Shown here piece after piece: positions 4,011-44,130 of a stretch of 64,000 nt of DNA. How positions within the stretch are numbered: position 1 is the stretch's first letter; each line of letters opens with the position of its first letter. Position numbers and translations under genes: made by a program. Source of the DNA: Marsupella aquatica (Eukaryota > Plantae > Marchantiophyta); contig OZ316894.1 in NCBI GenBank assembly GCA_973895155.1, forward strand, positions 20,652,451 to 20,716,450, in the 5' to 3' direction. The notes below the pieces were generated by a model. The model made no database searches, was not told where the DNA came from, and saw only the letters and a list, made by a program, of their open reading frames with translations.

Positions 4011-4242
4011 ATTTGGTGACATGTCTACTCATGGGCCGCAGGGAGTTCCTATCGATGGATCCGATGGAAGCAACGATGAACAAGAAGGTATGCAACTCTT
4101 TTGCAGGTTCAATTTGAGCTGACGGTCACCTTTGCCTGGTTGTTTTTTGCAAACTATTTAGTTGTGCATTATTAAGTAATGTACTGAGGATGCGTGCTAG
4201 CGTTTGTGGGGAAACCTTTACTTCGATCTCCTTTGACTTGAT

Positions 4243-6263
4243 ATGTCATACGTTGTTGTGCTGCGCGCAGCGACCACCATTGGAGTGTTAAGAGAAAGGC
4301 CAAGGCAAGAGTTCCAAGCTGTCGCACTACCTACCCAAGGGGTCTTACAAATGGCCTCGGACATTTCCAACTTTGATGAAGCAAGTGATCCTCCATTTGA
4401 AGGAGGAAATGAACAAGAACCTGTTCCACTCCCTATGGAAGGGGTATCAGGAAGGGTCTTGGGCATTATTTCCAGCAATGATGAAGCGACAGAGCCTGCA
4501 TTTGAAGGAGGTTCCGGAGAAGCTGTACCACTCCCTATAGAAGAAGAACCAGGAAAAGTCTTTGAAAATTCCACCAATGATGAAGGACGTTCAGGAGAAG
4601 CTATCTCACTTCCTGTCCAAGGGGTATTGGGAAAGGTGTTGGACAATTCCACTGATGATGAAGCAAGGGAGCCTGCAATTGAAGGGCTTGATGATGAAGC
4701 TGCGCGTGAAGCTGTCCCACTCCGTATGGAAGGGGTATTAGGAAAAGTCTTGGACAATTCCATTGATGATGAGGCAAGGGAGCCTGCGATTGATGAAACT
4801 GTCCCACTCCGTGTGGAAGGGTTATTAGGAAAGGTGTTGGACAATTCCACCAATGGGGAAGAAAGGGAGCCTCCAATTGAAGGAACTGATACTGAACAAG
4901 CAGTGACCAGTGAAACTCAAAAAGCACCTACAACAAGCGGGCAAAGTGAAGGTCCTAGCGGAGGTATGTTTAATAGGACATATGATGAGTCTTTGTTGCC
5001 CTTTAGTAATGTGATAATGTCTGCTATAGCGTGGTGTCGATCAACTCCTTCAGACAACCCAAAGGAAGGTGTGGCATCCGATCATGAGTGTCGACTACTC
5101 CAACCAGACCATGCCATGACCGAGGAGGTACAGGAGAATCCGGGATCCGAGGTCAGTACACAACTGAATACAAACAAGGTTGATCTTGTGGAGAATGATA
5201 GATTGGCATTGACAGGTGAAGCTGTCAAGGCAGTGAAGAACTTTGCTTTGGTGCCATATTCACCGCATAGTGCGCCCTTGATAGACTGTATGGGCAGTTT
5301 GCCAGAGTGCGCCACAACAGGTGATGCTAGGCATGCACAAAAGATGCCTACACGTACAAGGGACAAGGGTGAAGCGAGAAGTCCATCCACAGACTCTAGG
5401 CATGGAGTAACGACGTCTACATTGACAAGGGATGAGGCTGAAGCAATAGGTCCTTCCACAATATTGGAGGAGTCTCCAGAACATCCTTTAGTGTTTGAAG
5501 AATTGCCGGAATTCACATCATCAAGGTGGATGCAGTATGCTACACAGCGAGCACAAATGAGCTCCGATGGGAAAACTCATGTTGCTGACTATGTTGACAA
5601 ATTTGTGCAAGGAGCGATGCATGTACAAGCAATTGCATCTTATGAGAATTACAGGCGAGTATACTCAGATTGCAGGTTAGATGCTCGTATGAGAATGCAC
5701 GGTGCATATGAGGCTATGCGAAGTCTTATAATGGACCTACAACATCATAAGGACGTCTTGCACAGTGAGATAGCTACGCTTGAAGAAACCATGTTGCAAA
5801 AGAAATTAGAATTGAGGCGAATGCCTCCCACAGAGTCAGATGCTAGGCTTTATAGAGACCAGGCTTTCTTGTGGCAGCAAGAAACAAGTAAAGAGAAGTC
5901 GCGTTTTGTTGCGGATAAGCGACGATTGCAAGATGAATTGCACAATTTCTGAGTTAAGTTGTGGCAGATAAAAAGGCTGCAGAGTTGCAAATGACACTTG
6001 AAAGCAATGACAGGAAGATACTTAGTTCAAACGCCACAGTAGAATGGTGCAAACAGCAAGAGAAGGAGTTCTTGCAATTGCACAACAGTGAACTAGACAA
6101 ACTTTGTGAAGTCCGACGAGCGATTGAGGAAGCAGAAGGCATGCAATCACGTCCGCCTCGGCCGCGGATGGCACTCATGATGCACTATCGACATTGACTC
6201 GTAATCCTCAACCTTAATGGGTTATTGTGTGCAATTGCTGAAGATAGGGAGTTCAGGAAATAT
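4243..6263 (+). pseudogene. 5' part of an acidic-repeat / coiled-coil / FCP1-NIF-domain gene, interrupted by element A
   Basis: ORF 4243..5952 has imperfect repeats (LPxxGVLGKVLDNSxDDEAREPAIEG) and a C-terminal coiled-coil. A frameshift leads to 5961..6197; past its TGA the frame reads LVILNLNGLLCAIAEDREFRKY (NIF motif I-like) up to the TIR at 6264. Confidence 0.7.
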
Positions 6264-6287
6264 CAGCCTATTCATTAAAAGTGTATT
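6264..6287 (+). repeat. Left TIR of element A
   Basis: 24-bp perfect inverted match to 19218-19241. Confidence 0.92.
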
Positions 6288-6299
6288 ATTATTTGATTT

Positions 6300-6622
6300 A
6301 TGTACATTTGGGCAATGAAAAGTGTACTTTTGGGCTTGAAAAAGTGTACATTTGGCCAATGAAAAGTGTACATTTGGGGATAGAAAAGTGTACAATTGGC
6401 CTAAAGAGTGTACATTTGGGCAATGAAAAGTGTATATTTGAACATCAAAATAGGTACATTTGGCTTTAAAAAGTGTACATTTGAGTACATTTGGCCTAGA
6501 AAGTGTACATTTGAGTGAAACAAACATACATTTGGCTTAAAAAGTGTACATTTAAGTGCATTTGGTCTAGAAAGTGTAGCTTTGAGTGCAACAAAGTGTA
6601 CATTTGGCCTAAAAAGTGTACC
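6300..6622 (+). repeat. Left subterminal array of element A (AAAGTGTACATTTGG, ~22-bp period)
   Basis: Roughly 15 imperfect copies directly inside the TIR. Confidence 0.9.
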
Positions 6623-6868
6623 AACTCTTATTATAATCATTTAAAAGAAAGGAATGAATAGAAAAATATTTTTAATTATGCAAAAAAAGCAAACATTCAT
6701 ATTCATAACGATCAAAAGTTTAGAAAATGAGGAGATAGTATAACTAACACTCAATGGCATGGTCTCACATTAAAACTATTAAAATAGTAAATAACTAGTA
6801 GGTACTTGTTACTATCTAAGTAACTATCTATTTAATAATTATTATAGCTTCACAAGTAACAACTAAGT

Positions 6869-9800
6869 CTACTTGTCCATCCTTTGGAGATAACTTTGGA
6901 TAGTTTGTAGAACATTTCGAGGAATCTTCAAACCTCTGCCCACCATGTTTTCTTCTTTCATGCCAGATTTAAAACCATACATTGCAGAATTTGCATACTG
7001 CCAATGTTGAGCGTTCTCACCAAACCCTGGATCTCGCTCCCATGTCTTAGTGGACATGAAGCAGTTTAGATACCGTGCACTCTCAGTCACATCAAGTTTA
7101 GAGTGTTTAGGCCTCCACCATTCGACTGGAAACATTGGAGCATATTGTTGAGACAGAGGAGGGTTTGTTGGAGATGTAGTTGGGACTTCATGCTTAGGGT
7201 CAACCGAACCCAAAGCTCTCACCAACCAGAAATGACCTCCACCATTTTTATTCTCCCAGTCATCCTCGGGTCGAAGAAATACAAAGTTCCCTTGACAAAT
7301 ATCCTGTAGGGGAATCCACCGTCCTTGTTCTCTCTCAGCTCGAGATCCAACAAATGGTGCCGCTTGATCTTCCATCTCTTCCAAGACCTCATTTTGAAGA
7401 GCCGTCATCTTCGCATTCTCCTCATCTTCACTTGGAGGACCACTTTGATCCGGTTGGTTGACCTTGTAACCAGTGCCATGGTTAGTCTTAGGCCAAAATC
7501 CATTTTTCAAGGGAAATTGAGTACTTCCCTCCCCTTCTAGTGCAAGCCCATTTGTCAACAACTCCACAATTCTCTCCCAATATTTCACAAGAGGAAATCT
7601 TTCCTTATATGCTATAGATGTCTCATCAGTGCAACTCCTTCTCAAAAAATCAAGGTACTTGGTAAGAAATGGGATAATCTCTTCAGATTTTTTGTGTATC
7701 TCTCCAATGGATTTAGCTAAGGGCTCTCCACTAGGTAAAAGAAGGGAATTTGTTGTCAGATCTGTTGCCCAAATGCACCTTCCACCAACTGGAGCCCAAG
7801 CTTGCTTTACATGGGACTTATACTGAAATATTGGTACATAATCTCTCATAGAGAAAAGAAATGATACAGGTTTTGAGTGACCTTGAATATCTTTAACGTT
7901 GAAAGTTTAAAGATATTCTTTGTAAGATGCAACTTCTTGTATCAATCTGGGAACTGGATGAATGCTCTCACATTCCCAAACCTCTGCCATAAGAGCAAGG
8001 AGAGTTGCAACTTCCTTGTGCTGAACTTGATATGATACCTTCAAAAAGAGTGCATCAACATCTTCGTGCGTATGACCAACCATAAGAAAAGACATTTGAA
8101 TAGTTTCAAATACTCCTCTACTCACAAGCTCACTACAAAATGCCATGACAGTCTGGTTTTCGTTATCCTTTGCTGAGTTATCCATTTGCAATGTTAGGTG
8201 CCTTGGCAAGGGCTTGAAAGATGGACTGCCTTGTTCCCCATGCATGTCCCCTCCTTGATCCTCACCAAGTTGGGTGGAGACCGTCTCCGTCTGACTCTCG
8301 GCTGCATCTTCAGAACCAATATAGCTATTCATTGGAATACTCTTTGGTTCCAAATATCCCTTAAAAAATGCATCAAAGTCAAGAAGAGCTTGAAAGAAAG
8401 GTCTATGAGGTTCCAAATAAAGGCCATCCAACATGTCACCTGTCTTGTCTCCATTGTACTCTTCAAGGTCTCGAAGACACTTAGCCAAGGATGTCACCGT
8501 GAAATTGGCATCTCCTGGCCAAAGGCCAGTGACACTAAAGTGTGCATAGACTCCTGGATCTCTTCCGTGGATCAACATCCTTGTGAGAGCAATAGGTAGC
8601 GGCATCCCATGACCCGAAAGCGATTTAGGAGTACTGACCATTTTTGGAATCCACGTCTTTGCTTGATCCATCTTGTCGTGAATGATGCAAAGATATTCCC
8701 CTGGATGTTGCTTAGCCATCACTCGATGAGCATAGTAAACATATCTACGTGACATTTGCTCACGAAGATGTTGCGCTCGTTTTTCTTCAATTTCAGCAAC
8801 GTTCTTTTTTCCTTCTTTCTCGCATCAAACTATCTTTGTATTCACAACAAAGAGTACACTTGGCAAATGCACCATCTTCATGGAAACTAAAGTTTGCGAA
8901 TGATTTGCTCCAAATCTTGTACAGAGTATTCTCTGTAACTGGAGGAAGCCCCTCTTCCTTCATCTTTGTTCTCACATCTTCCAAAATCTCCAGCTTCTTG
9001 TAACATGCTGGAAGACGATATTCAGTGGAGTCTGTCCCATGAGCCCCAGCATAAGGTATATGAGGCATGGGCTCTGCATTTCGAGTCAAAAAATCCTCCA
9101 ACAGAGCTCGTGCATGCAAGGTATTTGACCTTGTTTTCATGGAGCCCGTGTTTCCATGGAACCCAATTTTGCAGCCCTCCACATATCTCCTTTTGTAGTC
9201 ATAATATTTTGTGTGGCTAAAACCATGGATGATTGCAAATGCATGTCTACATACGACCATACCCTTGAGAACATGGTGCCCCTTATCACGAACATCATCT
9301 TCTCTGTAGTGGAAGAGGTTGAAAATGTGTGATGTTTTTGACTCACTTGACATCCCGTGAAATTCTATCTGAATATCTTCTATGTCTTCTCTTGGCATAG
9401 TCAGACAACATTTCTGCTTGCAACAATTCTCTCTTTTAATTTCATCAATCGAAGCTTCCGTTGTTTTTGAAACTGCCTTGGTTTCCAACAGCCTTCTCTT
9501 CTTTTCAATCGGATCTACATGAGTCCTCTTGTTGAAATTGTATGGCCTTGTGCGCAGCATTCCCCTATCATTTACATTTGGATAGAGATCATCCCTATCC
9601 ACCGACTCCATCCTCTCTGAACCTTCAACCAAAATGTCTGACAAAAATTTCCCATTTGCAAGTAGTTTTGTTGAATCAATTCACCACCGAACCAAAGTAA
9701 TTACTCCCCTATGGAAGTTGGGAAAGTATTGTGATTCCACCACATCTTTCACAGCAATCCCTACATGGTCCTCACCAAGCATTTCATCGTCAACTGCCGC

Positions 9801-10625
9801 CATTTCTTGAGGCACAGTGATGGTCCCCGTGGCAACCCTATTGGTTCGATCTGAACCGATGTATAGTTCGACCAACTCTGACATCCAATTTGACCGTTGG
9901 AAATAGTCACAATTAGTTTTAGAAATTTCAGCTGAGGGAGACTCCACAACAAAACTCCGCTCTATGTTGATATCATCACCCGCATCCTTCTTTGAGAAAC
10001 TCTTTCTACTTTGGACATCTGCCACGTCCCAGAGAACCCATGAGTCTTTTGCCTCATCAATTGTTTCAGCCCCACTGTGTTTGTAAGGTAAAACCCTACT
10101 CCCATGAATGCCCACATGAATGATATCAGTGACCCTCACACTGATCCGTGATTCACCAAGTAAAATGTTGTGACATCTTTCCATTGGATTTGTATTGAAA
10201 ACAACTCCAAGGGCTACACAACACCAAAAGATGAACATTTCAACCTCATCCCCTTGCCTCAGAGTGGTCGATGAGTCCTCCTCTACAATTGGATTTTTCT
10301 CCAAATTACTCTCGGGTCTATTTGAACAACTACCTACACTAATGCGTTTTTGAGAATTTGTTGTCGTTGATAGATATGCGCAAGACAAATCCCAAATAAC
10401 GCAAGAATCAATGGCATCAAAAAGGTTTTCTGCCCGAGGCATCGGAAATGGTAGTTTTGTGGTTCGGTCAAAAACTTTCTCAATGAGAACTCCCATTCGA
10501 TTCTCTCTCAACAATATCTTTTGAACACTATCTTGCGGGTTGACTTTTTGAACTGTCCCACTCGCAACATTGTAACCATCATTTGTCAATATCACATTGT
10601 CTCCTCTCAAAAATATTCCGGTCAT
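6869..10625 (-). pseudogene. Transposase of element A: 3x Tnp1/En-Spm-like domain + CxxC + RNase H-fold DDD/E core (DUF7869/Sola-like motifs) + C-terminal domain
   Basis: ORFs 9681..10625, 8793..9644, 7907..8755 and 6869..7849 join through two in-frame stops (9681-83, 7907-09) and one frameshift (~8800). Motifs: FAKCTLC, IIHDKMDQAK, LQMDNSAKDN, FLMVGHTHEDVD; N-terminal repeats VAxGxV...LP(F/Y)...A.DS.V.WD. Confidence 0.8.
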
Positions 10626-10816
10626 TCCTATAACGTATTCACCTGCACAATTTTAAATGTAAAGTATTAGTTAAGAATGGTCCGAACTAGGAAGCACATA
10701 GGTGTCAACCCTCTCCAAGGACAGTGCGCATATTGGGATTATCCCCATCAAGCAAAATAATAGGTCCCCAAAAAGTCCCTATCTAGCCCTAAGATCCCTG
10801 ATCCCAATTTAGACGT

Positions 10817-11475
10817 TGGATAGGGATGATCCCTGTCCAAACGGTGGACAGGGATGATCCCTGTCCAAACGACGAATAGGGTCTGTCAGTGTCCAAATGG
10901 CAAACAAGGATCATCCCTGCCTAAACGGCGGATAGTGTCTGTCACTGTCCAAAGGGCGGACACGCCTGATCCATGTCCAAATGGTGGATTGAGTCTATTC
11001 CCTGTCCAAACAACTGACAGGGATGATTCAAGGAAACTTTTCATATTGGGGTCCAATCAAGCAAATACCTCAAACGGCGAATAGGGATCATCCGGAGAAC
11101 GACCACGGACACGGATCCCTATTGAAAGGGTAGACAGGGATCATCCCTATCAAAACGGCGGACAGGGACCATCCCTATCCAAACGGTGGACAGGGACCAT
11201 CCCTATCCAAACGGTGGACATGGATCATCCCTATCCAAATGGCGGACAGGGATCATCCTCATCCAAACAGCGAATACGGATCATTATCCAACTAGAGGAT
11301 CCAAACGGCGAATATGGATCATTATCCAACCAGAGGATCCAAACTGTAGAGGATCCAATAAAGTGCTATAGTTCATATGGTCCTCCACAGTACTCTACGG
11401 TGGACAGGGATCATCCCTATCCAAACAGTAGATAGAGATGATCCCTATCCAGATAGCAAACAGGGATTACCCCTC
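10817..11475. repeat. Array of element-A palindromes GGAYAG-N9-CTRTCC
   Basis: Many copies of ggacagggat(c/g)atccct(a/g)tcc in the region between the divergent genes. Confidence 0.88.
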
Positions 11476-12567
11476 TACGGACAATTGACTTTACACACTA
11501 ATTTAATGTTTGAGCAAAGAACGGTTGGATTGAGATTATCCCAATCGTGAGTTGGGCTGGGATTTTTTCACTTCAACCTTAACTTAGATATAGTAATTCC
11601 TAAATTTGCGGATATCAATGGAATATGCTACAATTCTATAATTAGGTTTAAAGTTACCTGTAATGGAAATGATTCTTGAACCCAAAACTCAATTTAGTTT
11701 ATGTTGTCAAACCAAGGATTAAAATACTGTGTTGAAGGGGTAGTTATCAGTAACCTGGTAAACTAAATGCTTCAGGGGTGTGGAAGAAATTAAAACTAGA
11801 TGTTCTGTCTAGAAAACAAGAGTGTCTCAATGGGGCTCCGTAATGAACGGACCTGGTTGAGGAACAGAACGAAAATCTAGAAATGAAAATACCAAATGAG
11901 GACCAGCCGGACAACCCCAAGTATCTTATACCAGTTGTTGAAGATCGCCCTTATGGATAAGGCGATGCATGATCAGCCTTAAGCAACGGCGAGTGGATTA
12001 GGTCGGGCGGTGCACTTTAGGGCAGCCATGCATTTAGGGTTTTCCACTCGCCTCGGCCTCCCACGTGTTCAGTGTGCCTTGCCTCGCCTCGGGGGGGGGG
12101 TAAAGGAGGTAGGAGGTCCCACTTGGACCTCATTCTTCATTCCCTCCTCGCTCCTCGCTCGCTCTCCTCCTCGCTCGCTCTTCTCCCTCCTCCGTCCGCT
12201 CCTCCTCTTCTCCACTCTTGCTCTTGCGCTCCTTTGCTCGCTCCTCCGCCTCATTCGCTTCCAATCTCCTTCGCTCCGACGCCTTTGCACTCCTTCGCTC
12301 TGCCTCCGCACTAAAGTTTATCCCCATAGCCGCCACGTTAATTTCCCTAGATCTAACGCTCTGCAATCCTCCACATGTCCATAAGGCCACGTGTCACACG
12401 ATGGAGCCATCCAGACCTATTCCAGTGTGTCTCGTCAGTGAGCCAACAGAGGAGACAGACCTCTCATCCATTGAGGACGTGGTGGAGACGGCCCTCGAGG
12501 ATTCCAGAGCCTTTCAATCGCTCAATCCAAGTGAGTATCCCAGTAACAAGTTAAATATTTGTGTGGT

Positions 12568-13150
12568 GGACAGAGATGATCCCTGTCCAAGTAGAGTCCA
12601 AATAGAAGATAGTCATCTTTATTAGGAATTGGACAGAGATGATCTCTATCCAAATGGATGGAGATCATCCCTGTCCAATTGCATAGATATCATTTATTTC
12701 CAAACTGACGATAGAGGATGTCCTATCAGACGATGTTGAGGACCTTTATTAGGAATTGGATAGAGATGATCCCTGTCCAAGTAGAGGATAGAGATGATAA
12801 TAACAATCGTCAGTATCCTCTCATCGAACAGAGATGATATTTATTACAAATTGGACAAAGATCATCCCTATCCAATTCGTAATAACGATCGTCAGTATCC
12901 TCTCATCGAACAGAGATGATCTTTATTACAAATTGGACAGAGATCATCCCTGTCCAATTTGTAATAATGATCGTCAGTATCCTCTCATCGAACATAGATG
13001 ATCTTTTTTACAAATTGGACAGAGATCATCCCTGTCCAATTCGTAATAACGATCGTCAATATCCTCTCATCGAACAAAGATGATCTTTATTACAAATTGG
13101 ACAGAGATCATCGCTGTCCAAATAGAGGATAGAGATGATCCCTGTCCAAT
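12568..13150. repeat. Intron 1 array of element-A palindromes, partly in ~80-bp tandem units
   Basis: Repeated ttggacagagatcatccctgtccaa / cgtcagtatcctctcatcgaacagagatgat blocks. Confidence 0.85.
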
Positions 13151-14846
13151 TTTTGTCAATTACAAAAGTAAGATTTCCAAACTAATATGCCTGGATGGGA
13201 CTATTGCAGGGAGCTATCTAAATGCATTGAAACCACAGATTTCAGACACAGATTGCTCCGAGGGAGTCTTGTTGGAGCAGAGCAGAGAAGATTTTCGTTG
13301 GGGCCTTGAGTTCTCCAGAGTTGATTTTGATTTCCTTAGCACATCAACGAGACGGGATCCCATTTTGTGCATAAAGGTCAGAACTGCAGATCAGGAGACT
13401 CTTGTACTCGGACCTGTAGTCTTCATTGGAATTGAAGGAAGAGGGTTTGTTTCCGTCATTCTTGAGCTCCATGAAAGGATACGATGGGTTAAACTACATC
13501 TACCATCAAAGGCGTATTCTTCAGAATTCAATGTTGAGTGGTCTGCAGCTGGAGAACTTGGCGTGTTGGCAATGGGATTTTTCCCTAAGTCGTATTCAAC
13601 TCAAAAGGTGACTGTTGGAGTGAAGGGGATTCTTCCACTTGACATCATGTATGGGTTTCAATATGTGAAGCTTAATATGCATAAACACCAAGGGAATTAT
13701 ACATTTCCGGTGACATGGATTTTAAATAATTTGCTTGACAAGGTAGGATTCCTATCATCGGAATCAGGTGTTTTCCTTGACAAGAAAATTGCATTTGCGG
13801 AGGAGTTTCCAATGGATAATGCAAAAAAGTGGGTAGAATCATTACCCAAGCCTACAAGTGTTGCACCAGTAGTGGTGAACAAGCCTACAAATGTTGCACC
13901 AGTAGTGGTGAACAAGCCTCCAGTAGTTGTTAACAAAGAAGTTCCGAAGCCTAGAAAAATATCTCAAGAGACAACAACCGGGACTGCAGGAACAACGGCC
14001 GGGACAGCCTCCAAACAAGTGGTAGGGAAGCAAAGACAAAGAGAGAAGAAGGAGCGCAAGAAAACTGAGACACTGCCGAAGGAACCCGAGAAGCCAGTAA
14101 AGAAGAAACATAAAACTGACAAGACTATTGCGCGGTCAACTCCGACGGACGTAAATATGCTCCCAGAGGATAAGGGAGACAAACTTGATGCCCCGGAGGA
14201 GAAGAAGTTCTTAGAAGGGAATGATGTTCTCCAAAGAATAGAGCAGTACTATACTTTTGGGATAAATGAAATATTTTCTATTCCAGTGGAGAAAATTTAT
14301 CCAGCTCCGGCAAGGTTATGTTACAGGATGCTCAACAGTGCCCATGTGAAGCACATAGCCGAATCCATGGTGAAAAAACCTGGACATGAACCTCACGTTG
14401 CGGACCTTCTTCCTTACAATCCGAAACTTAGAAAGCTGCTTCATTTTGACAGCATGGAGAATGACTGCAAAGACCTTCTTGCAGGAGTGAAGAAAGGCGA
14501 GATTGTTTTCCTTGCCGTCAGTGGGCAACATTCTGCTAGGGCGGCCAAATGGGTTCTTGAGTGGGCCGAAACTGATGCCAAGCTCACAGTTTTGGCAAAA
14601 AAGTTAAAATATAGGAAGGCTAGATTATTGTCAGACCTTATGCCATCGGCTATACTGGTTGAGCACTCAATGAGATCAAATGCCATCAATTCTTTGATGG
14701 TGTTTCAATCGTGCTTCAAAGATACAATTGTTCATGCAAGAAAACAATTCCTTGAAACTGGAAGACCAAGAAAGCCAAAGCATGGGGACAACAAATCAAA
14801 CGCCCAAGAGAGTCAAAAATTTCAGGTGAGAAACATTTTTCTTGTT

Positions 14847-15104
14847 TGGACAAAGATGGTCTCTGTCCAAGAGTGTGACCGTCCGTTACATTGATTTTAG
14901 TTCAATATGTTTTTGGTTATGACTTGGATGGAGATGGTCTCTGTCCAAGAGTGAGACCTTCCATTCTGTAGATTTTACTTCATTCTACTTTTGGTTATGG
15001 CTTGGACGGAGATGGTCTCTGTCCAAGAGTGAGACCTTCCATTCTGTAGATTTTACGTCATTCTACTTTTGGTTATGGCTTGGACGGAGATGGTCTCTGT
15101 CCAA
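14847..15104. repeat. Intron 2 tandem repeat (~78 bp) carrying GGACGG-AGATGGTCT-CTGTCC
   Basis: About 4 copies of ttggac(g/a)gagatggtctctgtccaag. Confidence 0.85.
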
Positions 15105-17802
15105 GCAAGCGATTGTGTGTTGTCAAATCTCATTGATTGTAGATAACTTACAACATTCTCCCTAATTTTTGACTGTAGGATTATCTGGCATTGGCAAGGA
15201 TGACCATGGGGAGAAAAGACTTGAAAAATGTATACTGGTTACTTTTTGCCGAGAATGATCTTTTCAAGTTATGGCGGTTAGTGTGCCAGATGTGGATTGA
15301 TGGAAAACTTCCTGATGGGGCTGGTACATAGGGAAACAAAAGGTCCGAAAAGGCGATAACCGTCGCCATGTTTCGTTGTTTTGATGGTGAAATCTCAAAT
15401 AGAGATTTGACCAGAATTTTGAACAAGGTGAAGTCGGGTCAGATTTTATTGAAGAAAGATCCGACTAATAAGTCAGATGTTCCAGCGATGGAGGAGTTTG
15501 CAAAGGAGGTGAAGATATTGATCAAATTGAAGTCTCTTATTGGAGATTACTACTTCAAGAAGGATCCAAAACACTTCCCAGCAGATACTGATTGGGCTAA
15601 AGTGATTGAAGTCCTCCCATTATTGGGTCCCGATTCGGAGTTGAACAGGTGCCGAAGAGCAGCTGGCGATGTATGGTTGACAAATTTGTTGAAGTCGAAT
15701 CATACAAAGGAGAGTGAGATATTGCCAATGACATTGGTGATGTGTCTAGATCATATTTATTGTCAAAAGTTTGGTGGTGGGACAAGTTCTCGAACCCAGC
15801 CGTGGGTCACATTTGTTAGTAACAACCTAATGAAGACTGTGGATCCGGAGTCGTTGGAAGAACAATCTCCAGCATGCCCTCTTGCAATTGTTGATTTCAG
15901 CCGACTTCAACAAAAAGAGTGGACTGAAGTAGAGATTTTGGTCCTCTTCCAATATATAGTAGAGCTACCACGGAATCCTATCATTGTTGTGATGATAACT
16001 GTCCATCCGGGTTATCTTGTACTGAATGTCCTAAGCGCTCTTCGTAAATTTGGACATTCAAAAACTCTGAGTATTCACATTGAGTACATGGGAGTTATTA
16101 CCGAGATGATCAACCTCATCCTCAGGACTCATGTTGGAAGGGAGGAATAGAAGAGGTTATCTTTGCCAGAATTTCTTGCGAGGAGAACGTCAGCTGGGAT
16201 GAAGTGTTCAAGCCCAACCAAATGAAGCCAAAATGGGTGTACGGTGAAAAGGATACTGATTTCGTGGTTGAGAAGGTCAAGGGAAAGGGAAAGGCCAAGG
16301 ACGCGGACGAGGAGTCATTGCATGAAGATCTAAAAAATATGATGACCCCAGAAGAGGCGGCAATCCTTCTGCACATGGCACCTCCATTTGAGACTGTCGG
16401 CGCTCGGGGTGGGTGGGTGAATCCTCACGCCAAACCCACACGGATGATCCAAAAGATCATCCAAACACTGTCCAAGCCGGGGGATTTGATTCTTGACTTT
16501 TTCTCTGGCAGTCAAGTGATGAAGGCATCCCTTTTTTCTCAACGTGAATGTTTTGTTTATTGTGACTCTCAACATGAGAGACATTTTGTGGAAGCATACG
16601 CTTCGTTCCTTTGTGAGAAGGTTCCCACCATCAAAGATCGTTATGATCGCAAATGTCGGTGGAAGTTCTAGACATTGGGAACCCTCTTCTGCCGCTGTTG
16701 CTATTGAGGATGAATTAGATGGTGATCAAGAAGATGGAGCTGACCAATCAGTCAAAGACGATGGGCCATCAGAGGCATACGTGAAGAATTTGGATGACCG
16801 AGTTGGCGAGGGTGAAAATATTGACCTTGTGGACGACGATATGATTGTTGGATCTGCACCTTGTAGTTCACCAATTACAGATGCTGCCCCCATGGGCCCC
16901 AACGAGGGCCAATATGATGATAACTTGGATAGAGATGGTCTCCATCCACAAGTGCCTGGACAAGAGATGGAAGTTGATACTTTTGAAAAACTTTCTTCAA
17001 ACAACCTTCTCAATCAAGGTGCGGAGAGGCATGGTGAGTCCAATGAACTCAACACATTGGGATTGAGACCACAGCCCATCCAAATAGCTGACATTCCCGT
17101 GAATGAAGCAAGTGCATCCACGACTGCTGACAACCAGGCAGGTGCTTCAATTTGTCCCAATACACTCTTTTCCGCTTCTGATGACAAATTGGTGTTTGTT
17201 CGATCACAATCAAGAAGTCCCGTTATCCTTCCACTCTCAAAAAAGAAAGGGAAGAGAGTAGGATCAACTGGATATAAGTCACTTGAATATGATTGTCAAT
17301 GTTACGTGTGGAAAAGTGGACCCGATGTAGGAACTGAAGTTGCGTTGGATGCTGCTCAATCAATTTTGAACAATGACTCGTACAAAAAGCACAAGAAAGA
17401 TCCAACTTATAGAAGTGGAGAATTGGGATTGATAACTCCGGTTTGGTCTGCACCTTATTGGGTAGAGGAGAGTACCTCCGATGTCAATTATGAGATCCAA
17501 CAAGAACTCGATGATGATATCTTGATTGATGAATATGGATCGCATTGTTAGCCAAGGTCTAGATTGAGCGATGTGACCTTATCAATTTGATATAATATAG
17601 TCTGTATAATTATACTTCAAGTTTAACAATTAGAGCATCAGTATCAATATCCATCTCCTCTTTACGGTTTCTCAATGAATCTGATGAGTATGCAGATATA
17701 TTTTCTTTGTGGTTGGCCACTTGTGTTGGATTGACAGAGATGATCTCTATCCAAACTTCAATGTGGTTTTATCTCTAAGATTGGTATTTGTTGCACTTGT
17801 AG

Positions 17803-18838
17803 AACCAAGACCTTGTTCCATCAAGCGCAAATTGCTGATTTTGGATCTTAACAAAATACTTTGGGATTCAGTTGAATTCCAAAGCAAGGGAAAATCCAGA
17901 AATGTTGTGATCCCAAGTGGAGTGCATTGGGATAGAAAAAATGGAATTAGTCGCATGTACACAGAAAGGCCAGGGCTCCATGAGTTTCTAAAGTTGGTTT
18001 TTGACCGATTTGACGTTGCAATTTGGACATGTGCTGGGGTACATCGAACAGTGAAAATGCTGAACATGATGTTCACTGCTGAGGAGCGGTTGAAACTTAA
18101 GTTTGTATTCACACAAGTGGAAGCCTTTGACACAGGCATTCAAAGGCGTGACATTACAAATGGAAAGGCAAATGTGCTACTGAAGGATTTTCGGGTGGTA
18201 TGGAGTGGATTTGGAAATCTATATGATGAAACCAACACCTCCTTGTGGATGACTCCCCCCTTAAGGCATTTGCCAACCCAAGCATGACCGGACTATTTCC
18301 AGTGCCCTACACGCATGCCAATGGTGGAGATAATTTTCTTCTAACAATTCTTTGGCCTTGTCTTGAGAAACTATCCCATGCAAGTGACATTAGATGTTAT
18401 CTTCTTCTTAACTCTCCACTGTGGTCTCTATTGCACATAAAGAGAGACAAGGTAAAAAATGAAATTACTTATGATCAACTTAGTAAGAGATGTGCAACAA
18501 AAATTTGGAAGTCACAGTTTACGCATAGTGTGTTAGACCTCAATAGCAATGAGATTCCTTGGAATGTGAAGCATCGTATATGTAGTTTACGTCCTGAGGC
18601 AGAACTTGACGATGCACTTGTCACGTCACTTGCTAAAGCATTTGTAGGAAGGGACTATTCAGGTCCGCATAGAGAAAATCCCATACACTTTTTGCGGGAG
18701 ATTATAGCCATTAGGAACAACACCACCAAGTTTCAGCTCCCTAAAGATAAAGGGACTTGCAACCGTGACACTAGGGTAGATAGTAAAGGAGACAGGGGCA
18801 CGTGCTCAAATACACATTGTAAGGAGCACTTTGTTTAG
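17803..18838 (+). pseudogene. Element A cargo gene 2: FCP1/NIF (HAD) phosphatase-like protein with C-terminal Cys/His motif
   Basis: KLLILDLNKIL, ERPGLHEFL, FDVAIWT, LLKDF, DDSPLKAFANP; tail TCNRD...CSNTHCKEH. Frameshift ~18240; 5' exon(s) not defined. Confidence 0.8.
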
Positions 18839-19101
18839 AGATATGACTCATGTTAAGCCCCTTAGATAGAAGAAATACATTGTAAATTTGGAGATAATTG
18901 TATATTATTTTATAATCTATTTGGAGTTATGTCATTTTGTTCACACATATTCAAGGGTTTATTTGTGCTGAAATGTTTTTATAAGTATGATCTCTATCCT
19001 ACTATTCTTTGTGAATTCATAAATAATGATCTCTATCCTATTATTCTTTGTGAATCAATAAATGATATAATATGTATTATTTATTAATATAATACTTATA
19101 T

Positions 19102-19195
19102 GATTTGGCCTATAAAGTGTACATTTAGAGACCAAAAAGTGTACATTTGGGTTTCTTAAAGTGTACATTTGGGGACATGAAAGTGTACATTTCAA
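19102..19195 (+). repeat. Right subterminal repeats of element A (same orientation as the left array)
   Basis: 4 copies of aaagtgtacattt. Confidence 0.85.
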
Positions 19196-19217
19196 GACTG
19201 ATTTGTGAACAAAAGAA

Positions 19218-19241
19218 AATACACTTTTAATGAATAGGCTG
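19218..19241 (-). repeat. Right TIR of element A
   Basis: AATACACTTTTAATGAATAGGCTG. Confidence 0.92.
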
Positions 19242-19243
19242 AT

Positions 19244-33030: not shown

Positions 33031-35427
33031 AGTGATATGGTGGACCTAGCCACCCAATGCCTTCACCAATCCCGACACCTGGGCACGCCTAAGTGCCCCT
33101 GGTGCCCGAACGCATCCACGGAATATCTCGAGCAAGCAACCTAGTGCCCCTTGCACCACCAGCGGCCCCTCCCATACAAAGTCGCACTTGCTCTCCAACA
33201 CGACCACTACTCTTGAATGGTTATCACTGTCTGCACATTCAAGCAACCAAGCGTCTCGGTAAATAACCCTTCAGGATCTATATCTCCTCAAGTCTAGCAT
33301 CCTAGTACTTAAGCTCCACAAACATTGGTAAATAGGTTAGCGATAGGTCCTCCTGATGCCATAAGTCGGAACCAGAACCGACGTTCACTGTTCATCCTAA
33401 ACAACTCCTTCCTTGGGCACAGCCCGGGTTTTCCCTTGTACCTATCCATCACTTACTGAACGCCCCGCCCCCAGGACATGCTCATGGCCCAAATAGCGTA
33501 GCTTGTCCCAACGCGCTGGGACCATAATGGTCTGACTCTCGCAACCAACTCCCGTTTCTCGCCCCACTGATGGTCTAGGGGCCAAGTGCTCTTGGAACTC
33601 AACCTCCACACCTACTTGGCTTTCCCTCCCCAATGCAAGCTCCCTCAAGCGATTGAATGCGGCTTGGCTGCTATTTCGGCAGGATTTGTCAAGCGGGCAA
33701 GATAGCACCCGCAAACCTTGAGAACCTAAAGCGCCCCCAGACCTCCTCAAGAGTTTTCCAATGCACCCAAGAAATCCCCCAATGGACTTCTCGTTGGGAA
33801 ATTATTGTCTATTTTGTTTGGGGTTTAGTTATCCCTTAGTGTCGCAACCGCCGCGGCTCACGACTTCGGCTCGCCCTTAGCCCCTAGGGAGACACGACTC
33901 CCCTCATATATGCTTCTGGAGACCTTTCACCCCCGGACCAACTTTGGTCCCCACGCGCATGTCTGGGCGCGCCACCAACTAGCAATGTCCATAACTTCCT
34001 AGTTAGGCCCCTGGGCCCTCACTCTTACTATATTAAGTGAACCCCCCTGAGAACAGACACCCCCCGTGTACCCCTTCTTAATATTTGTGTTCACAAAAAA
34101 AAATCCCTTGTTAATGTAAAAACATTATTTTTTCCTATAAAAATTTATCCTTTTGTAAAACCCAATGATCAAGGGAGTACACCACCCCACACACAAACAC
34201 ACCTGGCCTCATACTTGGCCATTTGATTCAAGGGAATTCAAAAGTAATCTTGTTTGTCTATGTGGGATTGATTCATGGGTCCCCATCAATCCCAGAACCC
34301 CAAACGAGTTGGGCCCCAAAATCCTGGCCCAACATTTACTTAACTCCCAACTTAACACATGCGGGTAAACAAGTCTACCATGCAAGCCCATGAAACCAAA
34401 CTTGCCTTAAGAGGATAAATAATTAAATGTCTGATTTACTATATGGACATGTGTGCCAATGAAGTGATGACATGTGTGTCAACCATATAGTGACACGTGT
34501 CCTTGGCATTTTAGGTACCCTTGCATAAGATTAATGTGACATGTATTTGATAAGAGCCTTATTACTAATATTGTGATGAATGTATATACATGGATGTTGT
34601 CTACTTTAAAAGATATTATAAAAATTAGTTTGCATTACATTAAAAATACCCTTGCGTTGTTCACACGTCCTCCCTGCATTAGTAACGCTGAGGGCCCAGG
34701 GAGTTAGGCATTTGTAAGTGGAGTGCCTTAGCCCCCCTGGGCCCTCACTCCGTGTAAAAGAAGTGGACCCCCCTACGATCAGGCCCTTTTCTTGTTTACC
34801 CCTTGTTATTTACATTTTACTATTAAAAGCTCCCTTATTACCGGTAATAATTATAATTATTAGTTCAAAATGAATAAAAATAACCCTTCGAGCGTTCGCA
34901 CGTCCTCCACGTATTAGTTAAGACTGAGGGCCCAGGGCTTAGCCCGTTGTGATCAGGCCGACCCAGTGCTCATGCCTAGGCCCTCAGATCTCATCGCCCC
35001 TTGGGACCCCCAATTGGCCAAACTCTTGCGCCTCAAATGTCCGTTGCCCAGGCATGGAGTCAACTTCATTGCCCTCGGGCCCAAGAGGAGCTCTCACTCA
35101 AGCCCTCCAAACTCAAAGTCTGTCCGAGGGTCCGGACGGTCGACCTTGAGCCTGACCCTTTTCCCCTTGACCTGACCAGCTCTCAGCTAGTCTAAGTCCA
35201 TAGTGCGTGACACCAGCTTGGCCCCTTGCCTTCGCCAGTGGCGCCAGAGCCACGTCCCATTGCCCACAAGTCTCCCCATGCTAAGTCCTCCGCGCATGGC
35301 CTATCCGTGCTTGGACCATAAGGAAGCTCGACGTCGGAGTCAACGATGCCGGAGCTAAGTGTTAAGGTAGTCAAGTTTCGTGACTTGCACTACCCCTTTA
35401 AAATGGTCATGTCTACATGACCTAAAT
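33031..35427. mobile_element. Degenerate LTR-retrotransposon-derived sequence (target of element B)
   Basis: Begins exactly where similarity to the host unit ends (GATCATAAGC|). Contains weak minus-strand pol-like peptides (HQGHLGV) and an LTR-like TGTC...GACA block (33840-35210) with GGGCCCAG repeats. Confidence 0.4.
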
Positions 35428-36017
35428 CACTATATTCATTAAAACTGAAATTATAAAGGATATAGGGAAATTTGGCGATTTAAAAACATAGTTTTAGGCA
35501 TGAATATTGTAAATTTGGAAGATGAAAAATGAAAATTCAAGCATCATTAAATGTAAATTTGGGGACACAAAAATGAAATTTTGGGAAAGTAAAATATTAA
35601 ATTGGATGATATTAAAAAACATTTGGGTGATAAAAGTGTTCATTTGGTTGGAAAATAGATAGAATCTAGTAATAACATATAAGCTTGGATAGCATCTATA
35701 TTCAAAACATTTAGCTTGAGTAAGATATCTAACTAAGCACCAATACAATGGAATGACTATAGTGTCTAGACAAAGTTAACTAGGATGATATCCAACCTAC
35801 TAGAAGGAATGAAATGGCATCATTTTCTAGAATTAAAATATACTAAGACAAATAAAATAATAATTATAAGAAAGTCCATTCAATAGCTTTGAGAGATCAT
35901 AGAGTATTAATTTGATTGTCTTGTTCTCTCACTTTAGACCAACGCATGGAAATCAACTCAACCCTCTTAATCACAAGTCATTTGAGTGGAGACTTGTAAC
36001 CTACGAGTTCTATCAAT

Positions 36018-39000
36018 CTACTCATCAATTATACCTTCCATGTAAATTTTGAGAGTTTTCAAAACATTCTTAGGAATTGTCAAACCTCTATCCATAATAT
36101 TTTGTTCTTTAGCACCTGACTTAAACCCATACATTGCAGAATTTGCAAACTGCCAACTTTGAGTAACATTGTCAAACCCAAGATCCAGCTCCCAAGTCTT
36201 AGTGGTTTGAAAGCAACGTTCATATCGAACATCATCCTTTGCATCATGCTTACCATGTTTAGGCCTCCACCATTGTACTTGGAACATAGGAGCATTCCTA
36301 AGAGGAATGCTCTCAACAGACGTTGAAGAAGACCCTTCAATATGTTGCAAATCTGTTGAGGGAACCTCATGGTTTGGATCCACACCACCCAAAGCTCGAA
36401 CCAACCAGAAACGCCCTTTGCCATTTTCCTGTTCCCATTCATCCTCTGGACGTAAAAATACAAAGTGACCTTCTTGAATATCTTGTAGAGGAATCCAACG
36501 TGCAGGTTCTCGCTCTTGTCGTGCACCAACAAAGGGTGCAGCTTGATCTTCCATCTCTTCCATGTACTCATTTTGAAGGTCCATCATCTCTGGATTTTGA
36601 GAAGGTTCACTTGACGGCTGAGATGTCCCCAAAATCATCTTGTAACCTGTGCCATGGTTAGTCTTTGGCCAAAAATCAGTTGTCAATGGCAAATGTCTTT
36701 CCCCCTCCCCTTCTATTGTAAGTTCCTCGGACAGTGCTTGCACAAGATTCTCCCAATATTTGACCAGAGGAAATCTCTCTTTATATGCTGCAGAGGTCTC
36801 ATCCTTACAACTTTTCTTCAAGAAATCAATATAGCGATTAAGGAATGGGATGATTTCTCCAGCCTTCTTTTGTACATCCCTAGATATAGGTTTTGCAAAT
36901 GGTTGGCCTTCCGGTAAAATGAGCGCATTTGTGATGGGATCAGTTCTCCAAATGGACCTCCCCATTGCCGGAAGCCAAGGTTGCTTGACATGTGCTTTAT
37001 ATTGATACACTGGCACATTATCCCTCATGGAGAAAAGAAATGCCACTGGTTTTGAGTGACCTTCTATCACTTTCACCTGGAAAGTTTTCAAATACTCCTT
37101 GTAAGATGCAACCTCTTGAATCAATCATGGTACAGGATGAATGCTTTCACACTCCCAAACCTCAGCCATCAACCCCAAGAGGGTAGCAACCTCTTTATAT
37201 CTGACCTGTTTGGATACTTGAGAAAATAATGCATCCACGTCTTCATGGGTGTGGCCAACCATGAGGAATGACATTTGCACAGTTTCAAACACCCCCTGCT
37301 AACAAGCTCAGTGCAAAATGCCATCACATATTGATTTTTGTTATCTTTCCCTGAATTGTCCATCTGCAACGTTAGGTGCCTTGGTAAGGGCTTGAAAGAG
37401 CCCCTAGTAGTCTCAGGATCATCCTTAGAACCAACATCCACTGTGCTTGACTTTTTAGTCTCTTGACCATCTTCAATGCCTTGAAATCGAACAATTGAAA
37501 CATTTTTGGGTTCCAAGTAACCGGCCAGAAATGCTTCAAAGTCTAGAAGGGACTGAAATATTGGCCTAGTTGCATTCCAATTCAATCCCTCAAGAAGGTC
37601 TCCAGTTTTGTCTCCTGTGTAATCTTCCAAATCTCGGAGGCATTTGGCCAAAGATGTCACGGTGAAGTCTGCATCTCCAGGCCAAAGTCCAGTCAAACTG
37701 AAATGTGCATACACTCCAGGATCTCTTCCATGGGTTAACATCCCAGTAAGAGCAATAGGCAAAGGCTGACCACTACCAGAGAGGGATTTTGGAGTGGGGA
37801 CCAACCTGGGGATCCAAGTCTTGGCTTGATCCATCTTATCGTGAATAATGCAAAGATAGTTTTGAGGATCCTTCTTTGCAAGAACCCTATGAGCATAGTA
37901 AACATATCTTCTTGACATTTGTTCACGAAGATGTCGCGCTCTTTTCTCTTCAATCTCTGCACGCTCTTTTTTTCTCTTCTCCCGCATCAATTGATCTTTG
38001 AACTCAGTGCAAAATGTGCACTTGGCAAATGCACTTCCCTTGTGAAAGTCAAAATTATCAAATGAGTTTTTCCAGATGTTGTACATAGTAACTTCAGTAA
38101 CCTTAGCAAACCCATCTAATTCCATCTTGGTAAACACCTCTTGGAAAATCTCCTTCTTAGTAAAACAAGATGGGAGCCGATATTCAATAGTGTCAGTGCC
38201 GTTGGACCCACCATAGGGAAGATGTGGCATTGGTTCCCCATTTTGGATTAAAATGGACGCCAACAAGGCGCGAGCGTGCAAAGTGCTTGATCGTGTCTTC
38301 CGTTGTCCCTGATTTCCATGGAAACCAATTGTGCAACCAGCTTCGTATTGATTTTTGTAGTCATAGTACTTTGTTGTACTGAACCCATGCATCTTTACAA
38401 ACCACACGTCCCTTTAGAACAAAAAATCCTTTTCTCTTGACTTGCTCCTCTCTACACCCAAAGAGACTAAAGATGTGACTTGTTTTGTTGTCACTTGGCA
38501 TTCCATGGTATTCCCTCCTCATTGCCTCTAAGTCCTCCCTGGGCATGTTCAAGCAACACTTCAGCTTGCAACAACCTTCTCTTTGGATGGAATCAATGGA
38601 CTCCTCTTTAATTTTCAAAAGTGCCCTCGACTCCAAATGCCTTTTCTTCCTCTCCTCAAGATCAACTTTTGTCCTCCTAATGAAATTGTATGGTCTTTTT
38701 GTAGGTTTACCATCACCATCCGAATCCGGATCGCCCTTAGTTCGACCCGACTCCATCCACTTCTCTGAAACTTCCTCAAGGCTCGGGGGGTCACTTCCAC
38801 AAATGTTGACATCATGTGCGAACGAAGTAAGGGGCATTTTATTCATTTTAGGGAAGTACTTAGAAGTAGCGAGGAAGTAAGGGGGTAACAATTCAAAAAG
38901 TGCCACTTGTCATCACATGATTCATTGCTTGCCACGTGTCAATAAATGATTGATGGGTTTTTTGAGCTTCCTATTCCTTTTTGAAAGAGTGATTAAATAG

Positions 39001-39994
39001 GGGCGTTCGCACATGGTATACAACAATTTCATAAGGTGAACCCCCGAGCCTCAAGGATATCCCCAAGAAACCTTTGAGACGAAATCAATAGAAGGGATTT
39101 GATTTCCCACCTCACCAAGCCAGGGGTACCAACACGGATATTTGGAAATAATCCGGGTTCATTGATATTCACAACAGCAACACCAACATGATCTGCACGA
39201 AGAAGTTCATCGTCAACGGCACCTGTTTCAAATGGGACCGTGATAACACCTGTTGCAACCTTTCGACAACGAGAAGCGTCATACAAATCAACCTCCTCCG
39301 CCATCCAGTTGGAACGTAGTGTAAAATCTTTTAATGGAAGATCATTGAAAATATTTGAACTACCAAACACGCCAAAATCTCGAAGAGTGCCCTTTCTAGA
39401 AACATGCGCAACATCCCAGATAACCTAGGTATGCAAGGCCTCTGCTATTGTATTAGCTCCAGGGTGCGAGTATGGCAATTTTTGATTTCCCTTAACAATA
39501 TCAGATATTCTTATACTGATGCGACCAACCCCGAGTGTTTCAGTATAACAAATATCCATCGGATTTGTCTTGAAAACAACTCCATTTGCAACCAACTGAT
39601 CAAAAATGAACATCTGAACTTCATCTCCTTCCTTGAACACGTCCTCTTCAACCCTTGCATCACTTTTGGATTTATCATTTCCAGCATCTCCAGCCAAAGA
39701 GAAATCATCGACATTGATTCTTCGGCGCTGAGTTGATGACCTCAAGTATGCCAATGCACAATCCCAAATCACGCAGGAGTCAATTGCCTCAGCCAATGTA
39801 GAAAATTTGGGCAAAGGAAATGGAAGTTGACGCGATCCATCAAAACTCTTTTCGATCAATACCCCAATTCGATTGTCCCCTAGACAAATGTTCTGTATAG
39901 TATCCTGGGGGTCAACCTTTTGAACTATCCCAATTGCCGTTTCAAATCCATCGATCACCAATGACACTTCATCCCCTCGTGTAAAATTGATCAT
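36018..39994 (-). pseudogene. Transposase of element B (same architecture as in A)
   Basis: ORFs 39425..39994, 39029..39370, 38361..38906, 37169..38407 and 36018..37124. Motifs FAKCTFC, IIHDKMDQAK, LQMDNSGKDNKN, and GHTHEDVD (frameshifted). Interrupted by a MITE, a stop and frameshifts. Confidence 0.8.
38780..39050. mobile_element. 271-bp MITE inserted in the element B transposase
   Basis: Imperfect ~45-bp TIRs GGCTCGGGGG(G/T)TCAC...CATGTGCGAACG. TSD TCAA (38776-79, 39051-54; longer readings up to CCTCAAGG are possible). Removal restores GDILEEVSEKWME. Confidence 0.85.
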
Positions 39995-40117
39995 GATAGC
40001 GGACTATCTGTATTCAAATAAAGTTAGAAATTGTTAAGTTATGTTACAATCATGTTTCAAAATCTGGACTCTCCTCCAAAAAATATTGTAAAATCACTCA
40101 AAACCCTAAATACATTC

Positions 40118-40552
40118 AAGTCGGGTCAGAATTATTTTGACCCTCCTCCAACATTATGTCTTGAAATGATTGAATTGACTAAACATTTACAAGTCGGGTC
40201 GGAATTATTTCGACCCTCCTCCAACAATATGTCTTGAAATGATTAAATTGACTAAACATTTACAAGTTGGGTCGGAATTATTTCGACCCTCCTCCAACAA
40301 TATGTCTTAAAATGATTGAATTGACTAAACATTTACAAGTCGGGTCGGAATTATTTCGACCCTCCTCCAACAATATGTCTTAAAATGATTTAATTGACTA
40401 AACATTGATAAGTTGGGTCGGAATTATTTCGACCCTACTCTAACTATTATGTCAAAACTATTTGTGAAACTATCTTGCTTATGCTTTTATATACCAGTTT
40501 AAAATGCTAGTTAAGATGACATAGTCAGGTCGGCACGAAATAATTCCGACCC
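40118..40552. repeat. 73-bp tandem repeat (~4.5 copies) containing GGGTCG-N9-CGACCC, plus one inverted copy
   Basis: Units start near 40118, 40191, 40264, 40337 and 40410. Confidence 0.9.
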
Positions 40553-43945: not shown

Positions 43946-44130
43946 TTGCCTCGCCCTAAGGGCGAGGCTGCCTTTTCTTGTTTTCCTTGGTTAGAAGATT
44001 AAAGCAAATGTTTGCCTCGCCCTCAGGGCGAGGCAACCTAGACTAGTCTCTCTAAGAATAATTCCCTAGTTCCGTTTCAGTCAATTGCGGTTAGATGTAG
44101 AGGTTCGCCACACCCTTGGGGCGAGGCGGC
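43946..44130. repeat. Intron 2 copies of GCCTCG-N9-CGAGGC
   Basis: 3 copies (near 43947, 44013 and 44106). Confidence 0.85.

Follow-up and report, generated by a model that had tools for sequence, protein, structure and literature searches.

Two Elements of One Layout in the Marsupella aquatica Window

We have analysed a stretch of 64,000 nucleotides from the liverwort Marsupella aquatica (GenBank assembly GCA_973895155.1, contig OZ316894.1, positions 20,652,451 to 20,716,450 of the forward strand), here called the window; coordinates are counted from its first nucleotide. The DNA is eukaryotic and rich in repeats, among them pol fragments of Gypsy and Copia type, and includes a short-chain dehydrogenase of plant type; self-comparison revealed two diverged copies, termed A and B, of one transposon layout. 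Each of them carries a gene for a large protein that is predicted to combine a ParB-like fold with the fold of a beta-class amino-methyltransferase (MTase), and this gene is the subject of the present work.

The two elements, 13–15 kb in size, have the structure of DNA transposons with terminal inverted repeats (TIRs). Element A (6262..19243) has the ends ATCAG..CTGAT and a 4-bp target duplication, AAAT/ACAT, in which three of the four positions match, while element B (35426..50362), of a diverged sister family, has the ends ATCAC..GTGAT and an exact 4-bp duplication, CTAA/CTAA. The sequence ATCA(G/C)nnTATTCATTAAAA makes up all four element ends without a mismatch and occurs nowhere else in the window when up to three mismatches are allowed. 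Subterminal repeats of 22 bp, alike in A and B and separate from the 25-bp palindromes described below, lie at both ends of A. A TIR transposon with a 4-bp target duplication appears to be the best reading of these ends. The ends can also be read as CA termini flanked by a 2-bp duplication of AT, which makes the 4-bp match a product of chance; a reading as CACTA ends (B starts with CACTA after the AT) was set aside, the 4-bp duplication giving the better fit.

The gene order is the same in A and B: a DUF7869 transposase on the minus strand is followed by the ParB–MTase-like gene, which is encoded on the plus strand, and this in turn by a NIF/FCP1-like gene. The transposase region (DUF7869, Sola-like DDE) of A (6872..10652, minus; PF25273, E 8e-35) contains stops and frameshifts, and that of B (36021..40003, minus) is broken too. 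Judged by transposase, TIRs and 4-bp duplication together, the elements look Sola1-like. The target preference given for Sola1 is AWWT (PMC3845634), which the left site of A fits and the site of B does not; the B site ends in A, and the insertion sites of the Ectocarpus element Sola1-1_Ec32 are described as biased to end in that base (PMC12477816). The open reading frame (ORF) upstream of the DUF7869 core (9684-10652 and 39428-40003, both minus) has beta-rich units that are repeated internally, and its B version gives a weak match to Transposase_23 (TNP1/EnSpm; E 0.008).

Element A belongs to a family found in all four sequencing runs, two organism labels among them, with 622 to 9394 contigs per run. 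The family is many-copied: the sibling contigs of all four runs cover 30 of the 30 bins of element A with hundreds to thousands of variant pieces, which is what a family of many copies would be expected to give. CpG depletion is mild throughout all parts and is uninformative.

A Three-Exon Gene, Broken in Both Copies

Read through two frameshifts, the gene of A has three exons with 1371 codons and a stop; one internal stop occurs at codon 633. Exon 1 (12401..12530, plus strand, as are all parts of the gene) begins with ATG at 12401, its GT donor and phase fit the acceptor, and a similar exon with equal phase is present in B. Intron 1 (12531..13209) is a phase-one GT..AG intron that harbours nine family-A palindromes in an array with an 82-bp period. 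Exon 2 (13210..14825) encodes an N-terminal domain without a family match, a Lys-rich linker and a domain with a predicted ParB/sulfiredoxin (Srx) fold (~14241-14696). The phase-zero intron 2 (14826..15178; GT..AG) harbours four family-A palindromes with a 78-bp period. Exon 3 (15179..17551) specifies a helical domain (~15179-15790), the beta-class amino-MTase-fold domain (~15794-16644), an acidic disordered linker and a conserved C-terminal domain with terminal EYGS. This last domain, of ~130 aa and ending in E(Y/F)GSF (17130-17551 in A; 48090-48498 in B), is shared by many homologues, and its model is partly confident. The motifs that concern us are in A at 14520 (SGQHSARAA), 15887 (IVDFSR), 16426 (HAKP) and 16489 (ILDFFSGS).

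The gene of B (41597..48498, plus) has its introns at 41766-42512 and 43880-44213, both matching those of A in position and phase (phase one and phase zero, respectively), and reads IVDFSR and ILDFFSGG; in the ParB region, A and B are 51% identical (E 1e-74). Intron 2 has outside support: a GT..AG intron occurs at the equal position in L001, a distant genomic homologue, and three proteins (P0075, P0060 and P0066) run unbroken across the junction, with both domains in one chain. Support for intron 1 comes from A and B only. The first-pass annotation, made from the letters without database searches, had proposed a transposon-borne gene with introns and a product of ~1370 aa; TIRs, target duplication and transposase in both elements bear out the former, and the three exons, with introns matched in B, the latter.

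Neither copy of the gene in the window is intact, and both are pseudogenes. That of A is interrupted by a stop at 15329 and by frameshifts near 16086 and 16651; in B, stops occur at 43586 and 44409, the frame shifts near 44919, and exon 3 contains an insertion of ~1.8 kb with inverted repeats (~45960-47770). This insertion, whose long inverted arms are built of 24-bp repeats and which has no long ORF, is probably a non-autonomous element. The three lesions of A are private to that copy. In sibling contigs, position 15329 is a C in most of the depth of the three runs that cover the site; at 16086, five contigs of one run and eight of another lack the two extra bases; and near 16651, almost the entire depth of run X3 is without the additional base. 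A single intact copy was not seen among the sibling contigs because these are short.

The ParB/Sulfiredoxin-Like Domain

The residues encoded at 14208-14828 were folded with nine related rows; the best of five models had a mean pLDDT of 74.6, and three of the five were under 50. The domain is predicted to adopt the ParB/Sulfiredoxin N-terminal fold. The first ten Foldseek matches were ParB, Noc and sulfiredoxin (E 9.5e-4). With VIA, the top matches were PadC, KorB, SerK, pNOB8 ParB and Srx (Z 8.5–6.6; best match Z 8.5, root-mean-square deviation (rmsd) 3.2, 100 aligned), and ranks 1 to 11 were all proteins of the ParB/Srx fold or carriers of such a domain, counting SerK, SbnI, SspE and Osa, which we take to have that fold. 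The VIA Z values are middling taken alone; the two methods agree. ESM Atlas returned fungal DUF3723 and one ParB_N cluster for the region. Sequence searches of Pfam, PHROGs and the PDB did not detect the ParB domain, and folding alone showed it. The P-motif of ParB, GxxR, reads GQHS in copy A and six of seven homologues and RQHS in the seventh, so that the Arg is gone in all. In ParB folds, an R-to-A change at GxxR is described to abolish nucleotide binding (10.1101/2025.10.10.680097). The helical domain between the ParB and MTase folds was confidently modelled; like the N- and C-terminal domains, it was assigned to no family.

A Predicted Methyltransferase Fold with Altered Motifs

The MTase domain matches PF01555 in the window (E 1e-7), which, like the agreement of A and B in the ParB region, is well past what chance would give, and for the domain of copy B, ESM Atlas returned PF01555 in all six of the family sets shown. 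Its N-terminal half went undetected in Pfam, PHROGs and PDB sequence searches; again, folding alone showed it. The model used is that of homologue P0075, which is 32–37% identical to copy A there. Residues 463-739 of P0075 match CcrM, M.MboIIA, M.RsrI, rotifer N4CMT and M.PvuII by VIA with Z 15.5–17.5 (CcrM: Z 17.5, rmsd 3.8, 218 aligned); over 11 beta-class enzymes, Z ranged between 13.7 and 17.5, with 186–231 residues aligned, and Foldseek gave E 1e-7. Identity to beta-class amino-MTases is 8–15%. A complete beta-class N4-cytosine/N6-adenine (N4C/N6A) fold is thus predicted, that is, a permuted Rossmann fold with the motif order IV–VIII, X, I–II. At the level of models, the agreement of Foldseek and VIA upholds the two folds that had been suspected from short motifs.

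At motif IV, the family follows the pattern D-[FL]-x-R: among 29 rows (A, B and the near-identical pair P0013/P0075 included), the Asp is present in 26 and the Arg in 24, while Pro at positions 2–3 and F/Y/W at position 4 occur in none. Nowhere in the 66 plant-type proteins is there a (D/S/N)PP(Y/F/W). The register of motif IV was taken from the topology of the model, where D496 is the last residue of the strand 492-496, which falls within the stretch that aligns with enzymes of solved structure. A profile–profile alignment with eight phage enzymes aligned motifs X–I–II (probability 97%) and not motif IV. Four of the phage beta-class MTases fetched (L003, L004, L005 and L006, out of eight) read DLPY instead of DPPY. 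Motif I is DFFSG-G, one residue shorter than DFFAGSG in M.RsrI and DFFSGSG in a phage enzyme that keeps DPPY. In beta-class enzymes, the strand following motif I is closed by an acidic residue (motif II). In this column, none of 43 rows has a D or E; one column further on, 20 rows have D and one has E. The first-pass annotation had read IVDFSR in both copies together with FFSG(S/G)Q. The former and the FFSGG of B stand, but position 16510 reads G in all four runs, by which the Ser in FFSGS of A is private to that copy and the family motif is DFFSGG.

Two branches had been left by that annotation, a divergent writer of N4-methylcytosine or N6-methyladenine (4mC/6mA) and a dead DNA-binding factor. 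We favour the second; a 4mC/6mA writer is disfavoured because motifs IV and I are altered and motif II appears to be so too. An active, non-canonical amino-MTase would place 4mC/6mA, or another mark dependent on S-adenosylmethionine (SAM), on its own element, with D-F-x-R standing in for DPPY. Consistent with such an enzyme, the whole beta-class fold is kept, as are the Asp of motif IV (26 of 29 rows) and the nearly invariant DFFSGG; the first Pro is variable in phage enzymes found in nature (DLPY in 4/8), and algal relatives are proposed to modify their own transposon (PMC12477816). Nevertheless, we consider it unlikely, with the second Pro and the aromatic residue gone in 29 out of 29 rows, the glycine loop shortened and no acid in the aligned column of motif II, and with the change of SPPY to APPA described as abolishing the activity of rotifer N4CMT (PMC8885841).

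Homologues and Selection

When 1.84 billion representatives were searched with a profile, 67 proteins matched (P0061 and P0068, which are prokaryote-type fragments, are excluded from the counts of homologues). Many are fragments; P0075 (1009 aa) and P0006 (901 aa) are long and open. The homologues with a species name are solely from liverworts, Calypogeia fissa and Riccia sorocarpa: out of 30 matches to the MTase domain that were looked up, 10 are named (two Calypogeia, eight Riccia) and none bears an algal name, and three of five matches to the ParB region are from Calypogeia. Word-index searches, one of which covered only proteins longer than 1767 aa, did not find longer homologues, a weak negative. 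No relative occurred among 25 pattern matches in viral contigs, and one occurred among 61 in metagenome contigs. A tblastn search against phages gave only weak matches, to DNA methylases (best E 6e-3); a phage protein labelled ParB/Sulfiredoxin aligns over 577 columns.

Between A and B, the ratio of nonsynonymous to synonymous substitution rates (dN/dS) is ~0.17 for the ParB and helical domains, 0.20 for the transposase and 0.32–0.46 for the termini and the NIF-like gene; for the MTase domain, where the synonymous rate (dS) is saturated, the corresponding ratio of uncorrected proportions (pN/pS) is 0.42 (0.34–0.50). These are simple counting estimates near saturation, and they indicate purifying selection in every part of the gene. 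The altered motifs persist among proteins that are merely 17–50% identical. Across the aligned family, the odd motifs are best described as family traits, not damage. The earlier proposal, based on two copies, that their shared substitutions reflect repurposing and not decay is in line with both the family-wide motifs and the selection estimates. Because both motif sets are lost and yet every part of the gene appears to be under purifying selection, the protein has the appearance of a double pseudo-enzyme that selection maintains.

It is very improbable that the gene is a decaying relic without present function. Stops and frameshifts do occur in both window copies and in L001, and many homologues are fragmentary, as a relic would have it; on the other hand, dN/dS is well under 1 in every domain, sibling contigs lack the three lesions of A, P0075 and P0006 are long and open, and equal substitutions have been kept despite the low identity amongst the proteins.

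Palindromes Private to Each Element

Scanning without training for 25-mers that have 11-bp arms gave 48 palindromes in the window, of which 16 represent one motif in A and 10 another motif in B. With weight matrices built from these, 26 sites were found for motif A, none of them outside element A (nine intergenic, nine in intron 1, four in intron 2 and four elsewhere), two of them inside the transposase region; motif B has 12, namely 11 in the introns of B (8 + 3) and one weak site in A. Markov controls for motifs A and B gave no match in five out of five runs. A third 25-bp palindrome, the second one of family B, has nine sites, all in B. Nine family-A palindromes are located between the divergent genes in an array with a 28-bp period (10816..11452), and six copies of the second family-B palindrome occupy the intergenic gap of B with a 73-bp period (40121..40554). 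The flanks in the motif A arrays (periods of 28, 82 and 78) are unrelated (26–32% identity); with periods differing as well, this speaks for conservation of the motif itself.

Palindromes of these kinds were not found outside the elements in the window. Those of A and B are equal in length (25 bp with 11-bp arms) and equivalent in position but different in sequence. Joints in sibling contigs suggest that the lengths of the arrays vary between copies. A scaffold common to the three palindromes (T1, G3, G8, T12) was considered and rejected: it was defined post hoc, and its nine matches, as compared to 0.8 expected, are circular.

A Possible Role for the Protein

The broken copies, the replaced nucleotide-binding Arg of ParB and the family-specific palindromes all go beyond what the first-pass annotation contained. 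ParB proteins read palindromic sites near their own gene. Recognition of parS by ParB has been described (10.1101/2025.10.10.680097), and the VANC proteins of plant VANDAL transposons (see below) are a further precedent. We give roughly an even chance to the following reading: the gene of A is a broken copy of a Sola1-like transposon accessory gene, the product of which has two dead folds and serves as a DNA-binding factor for the palindromes of its own family, keeping this family expressed or mobile. Given the altered motifs, there would be neither methyl transfer nor a cytidine triphosphate (CTP) clamp. The protein, probably as a dimer, would bind the palindromes via its helical and/or MTase-fold region, and binding would either counter host silencing or regulate the divergent promoter shared with the transposase, in the manner of VANC. 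Taken jointly with palindrome reading by ParB and with the VANC precedent, the simplest reading is palindrome binding without catalysis, which would protect or regulate the element.

A more specific version, which we put forward tentatively, is a parS-like self-recognition run by liverwort Sola1-like transposons, in which a phage-derived, disarmed fusion reads the 25-bp palindrome private to its family and shields or activates that family. Plants would then have, besides VANC, a second anti-silencing system of independent evolutionary origin, whose protein and operator drift in concert, and the conserved D-F-x-R pocket might read a flipped or methylated base.

Several points weigh against palindrome binding by a doubly dead protein. 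The palindromes could equally well be bound by the transposase. Of the matches to the weight matrices, 16 of the 26 and 10 of the 12 had served as training sites, so the scores are circular and location alone carries information; the sample comprises just two elements; and intron 2 of L001 (110 bp) is without a palindrome. As to the loss of catalysis, the MTase fold was modelled on P0075, not on the window protein, and the profile–profile alignment did not recover the register of motif IV. DFFSGG is strongly conserved, each position being found in 40–47 of 48 rows, and, because of this motif I and because 20 of 43 rows have an Asp one residue past the column of motif II, SAM binding may survive.

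Some of these points also favour an accessory factor that is just as dead but has nothing to do with the palindromes, which would be sites of the transposase or neutral fold-back minisatellites, while the protein acts through contacts with chromatin, the transposase or the NIF-like protein. Tandem arrays are generated by slippage, L001 intron 2 has no palindromes, two A-type sites lie in the transposase region, and nothing in the sequence ties the protein directly to the motif. However, the 22-bp subterminal repeats, alike in A and B, are already likely transposase sites, and the palindromes have the same length and equivalent positions in two elements, with a different sequence in each, and are clustered in or beside the gene. 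We hold this explanation to be rather doubtful and prefer that of a factor that binds its own family's palindromes.

NIF-Like Genes and Other Features of the Window

The second cargo gene, of the NIF/FCP1-like HAD phosphatase family, lies at 17800..18838 (plus) in A, with a frameshift near 18237, and at 48834..49892 (plus) in B, where it is broken by one stop. The order from MTase-like to NIF-like recurs in Riccia, for in the proteins P0064 and P0067 the MTase-like domain runs on into a NIF-like stretch. Both window genes read DLNK at the site where, we assume, the phosphatase motif DxDxT is to be expected, and both end in a conserved Cys/His-rich tail (CNRD..CSN..C..H). NIF-like sequence has a third occurrence in the window: element A splits a separate NIF/HAD-phosphatase-like frame (6195-6261 and 19244-20113; right flank NIF, E 2e-4), which has Gypsy pol (1-2348) and ORFs for coiled-coil proteins (4237-6194) upstream of it. 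That A is nested in a third related element was considered and dropped, as no remains of a ParB–MTase gene lie near the split frame.

Between the two elements lies an intact-looking short-chain dehydrogenase gene (25133-25966; adh_short_C2, E 2e-51), likely a host gene. A large segmental duplication with 87–91% identity pairs 30121-33030 with 51715-54811 and 20706-24278 with 54829-59160, and includes a gene (32017-32598 and 53628-54368) whose product is a Glu/Lys-rich repeat protein that looks secreted.

Comparison with Known Systems

The fold and the motif order are those of the beta-class enzymes CcrM, M.RsrI, M.PvuII, rotifer N4CMT and Marchantia DN4MT1. These enzymes and the phage fusions differ from the present protein, which has no (D/S/N)PP(Y/F/W) and a shortened glycine loop and is encoded by a spliced, transposon-borne gene. 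As described, the host-domesticated writers MpDN4MT1 and N4CMT have SPPY and are host genes, whereas here SPPY is absent and the gene lies inside TIR elements; as to the Marchantia and rotifer 4mC enzymes that had been brought up at first, no link appeared other than the common fold. For a dead MTase kept by a mobile element, the inactive MTase domains reported in DIRS1 retrotransposons (PMC4738411) are a precedent, albeit from a different MTase group. VirB, described as a ParB-type antisilencer that needs CTP (PMC10770331), is a precedent for a ParB fold acting against silencing, whereas here the Arg that is key to CTP is replaced.

The architecture itself is already published, for an Ectocarpus transposon and for elements of red and green algae. 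In Ectocarpus, Sola1-1_Ec32 has a 1104-aa ParB + N4C/N6A MTase gene opposite the transposase and a 4-bp duplication, and the best match of its transposase is Sola1-1_PPa of Physcomitrella (PMC12477816). It shares with A and B the character of a large Sola1-type TIR element with a 4-bp duplication, ends that start with A, and both domains in one protein encoded opposite the transposase. Set against its description, the Marsupella elements are from a land plant, are 13–15 kb in size, have lost the catalytic motifs, and carry a NIF-like second cargo and palindromes. That paper predicts its protein to be a writer and proposes that the algal ParB–MTase genes modify their own transposon, with no target site named in the accessible part (PMC12477816); here, the writer branch is disfavoured. 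In red algal Plavaka elements, PAG2 (PF01555 + SET) and PAG3 (ParB + 2-oxoglutarate oxygenase) are described (10.1101/2025.02.11.637652), so that the same two prokaryote-type domains are again cargo of giant eukaryotic DNA transposons, but in two separate genes, with other partners and an EnSpm-type transposase.

The closest functional parallel that we see is VANC, which is described as binding motifs that are specific to its family and multiplied in introns and between genes, and as stripping its own family of methylation (PMC5735166). The two elements here likewise have an accessory gene and, in their introns and intergenic gaps, tandem arrays of motifs that differ between families, although the motif of VANC21 is 9 bp and the palindromes are 25 bp, and the function is demonstrated for VANC but putative here; a Pfam scan of the gene product found no VANC-like domain. 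In the literature covered, neither a land-plant version nor such palindromes are reported. New are the arrays of 25-bp palindromes private to each element, which lie ahead of the gene and within its introns; the apparent loss of both active sites is the second feature that sets the locus apart. If the palindromes are unrelated to the protein, the window extends the range of a known cargo gene to liverwort-type genomes. As it stands, it provides candidate operators for two sister families, by which family-specific recognition becomes directly testable, and the comparison with the predicted algal writers suggests that, in land plants, the fusion has switched from writer to reader.

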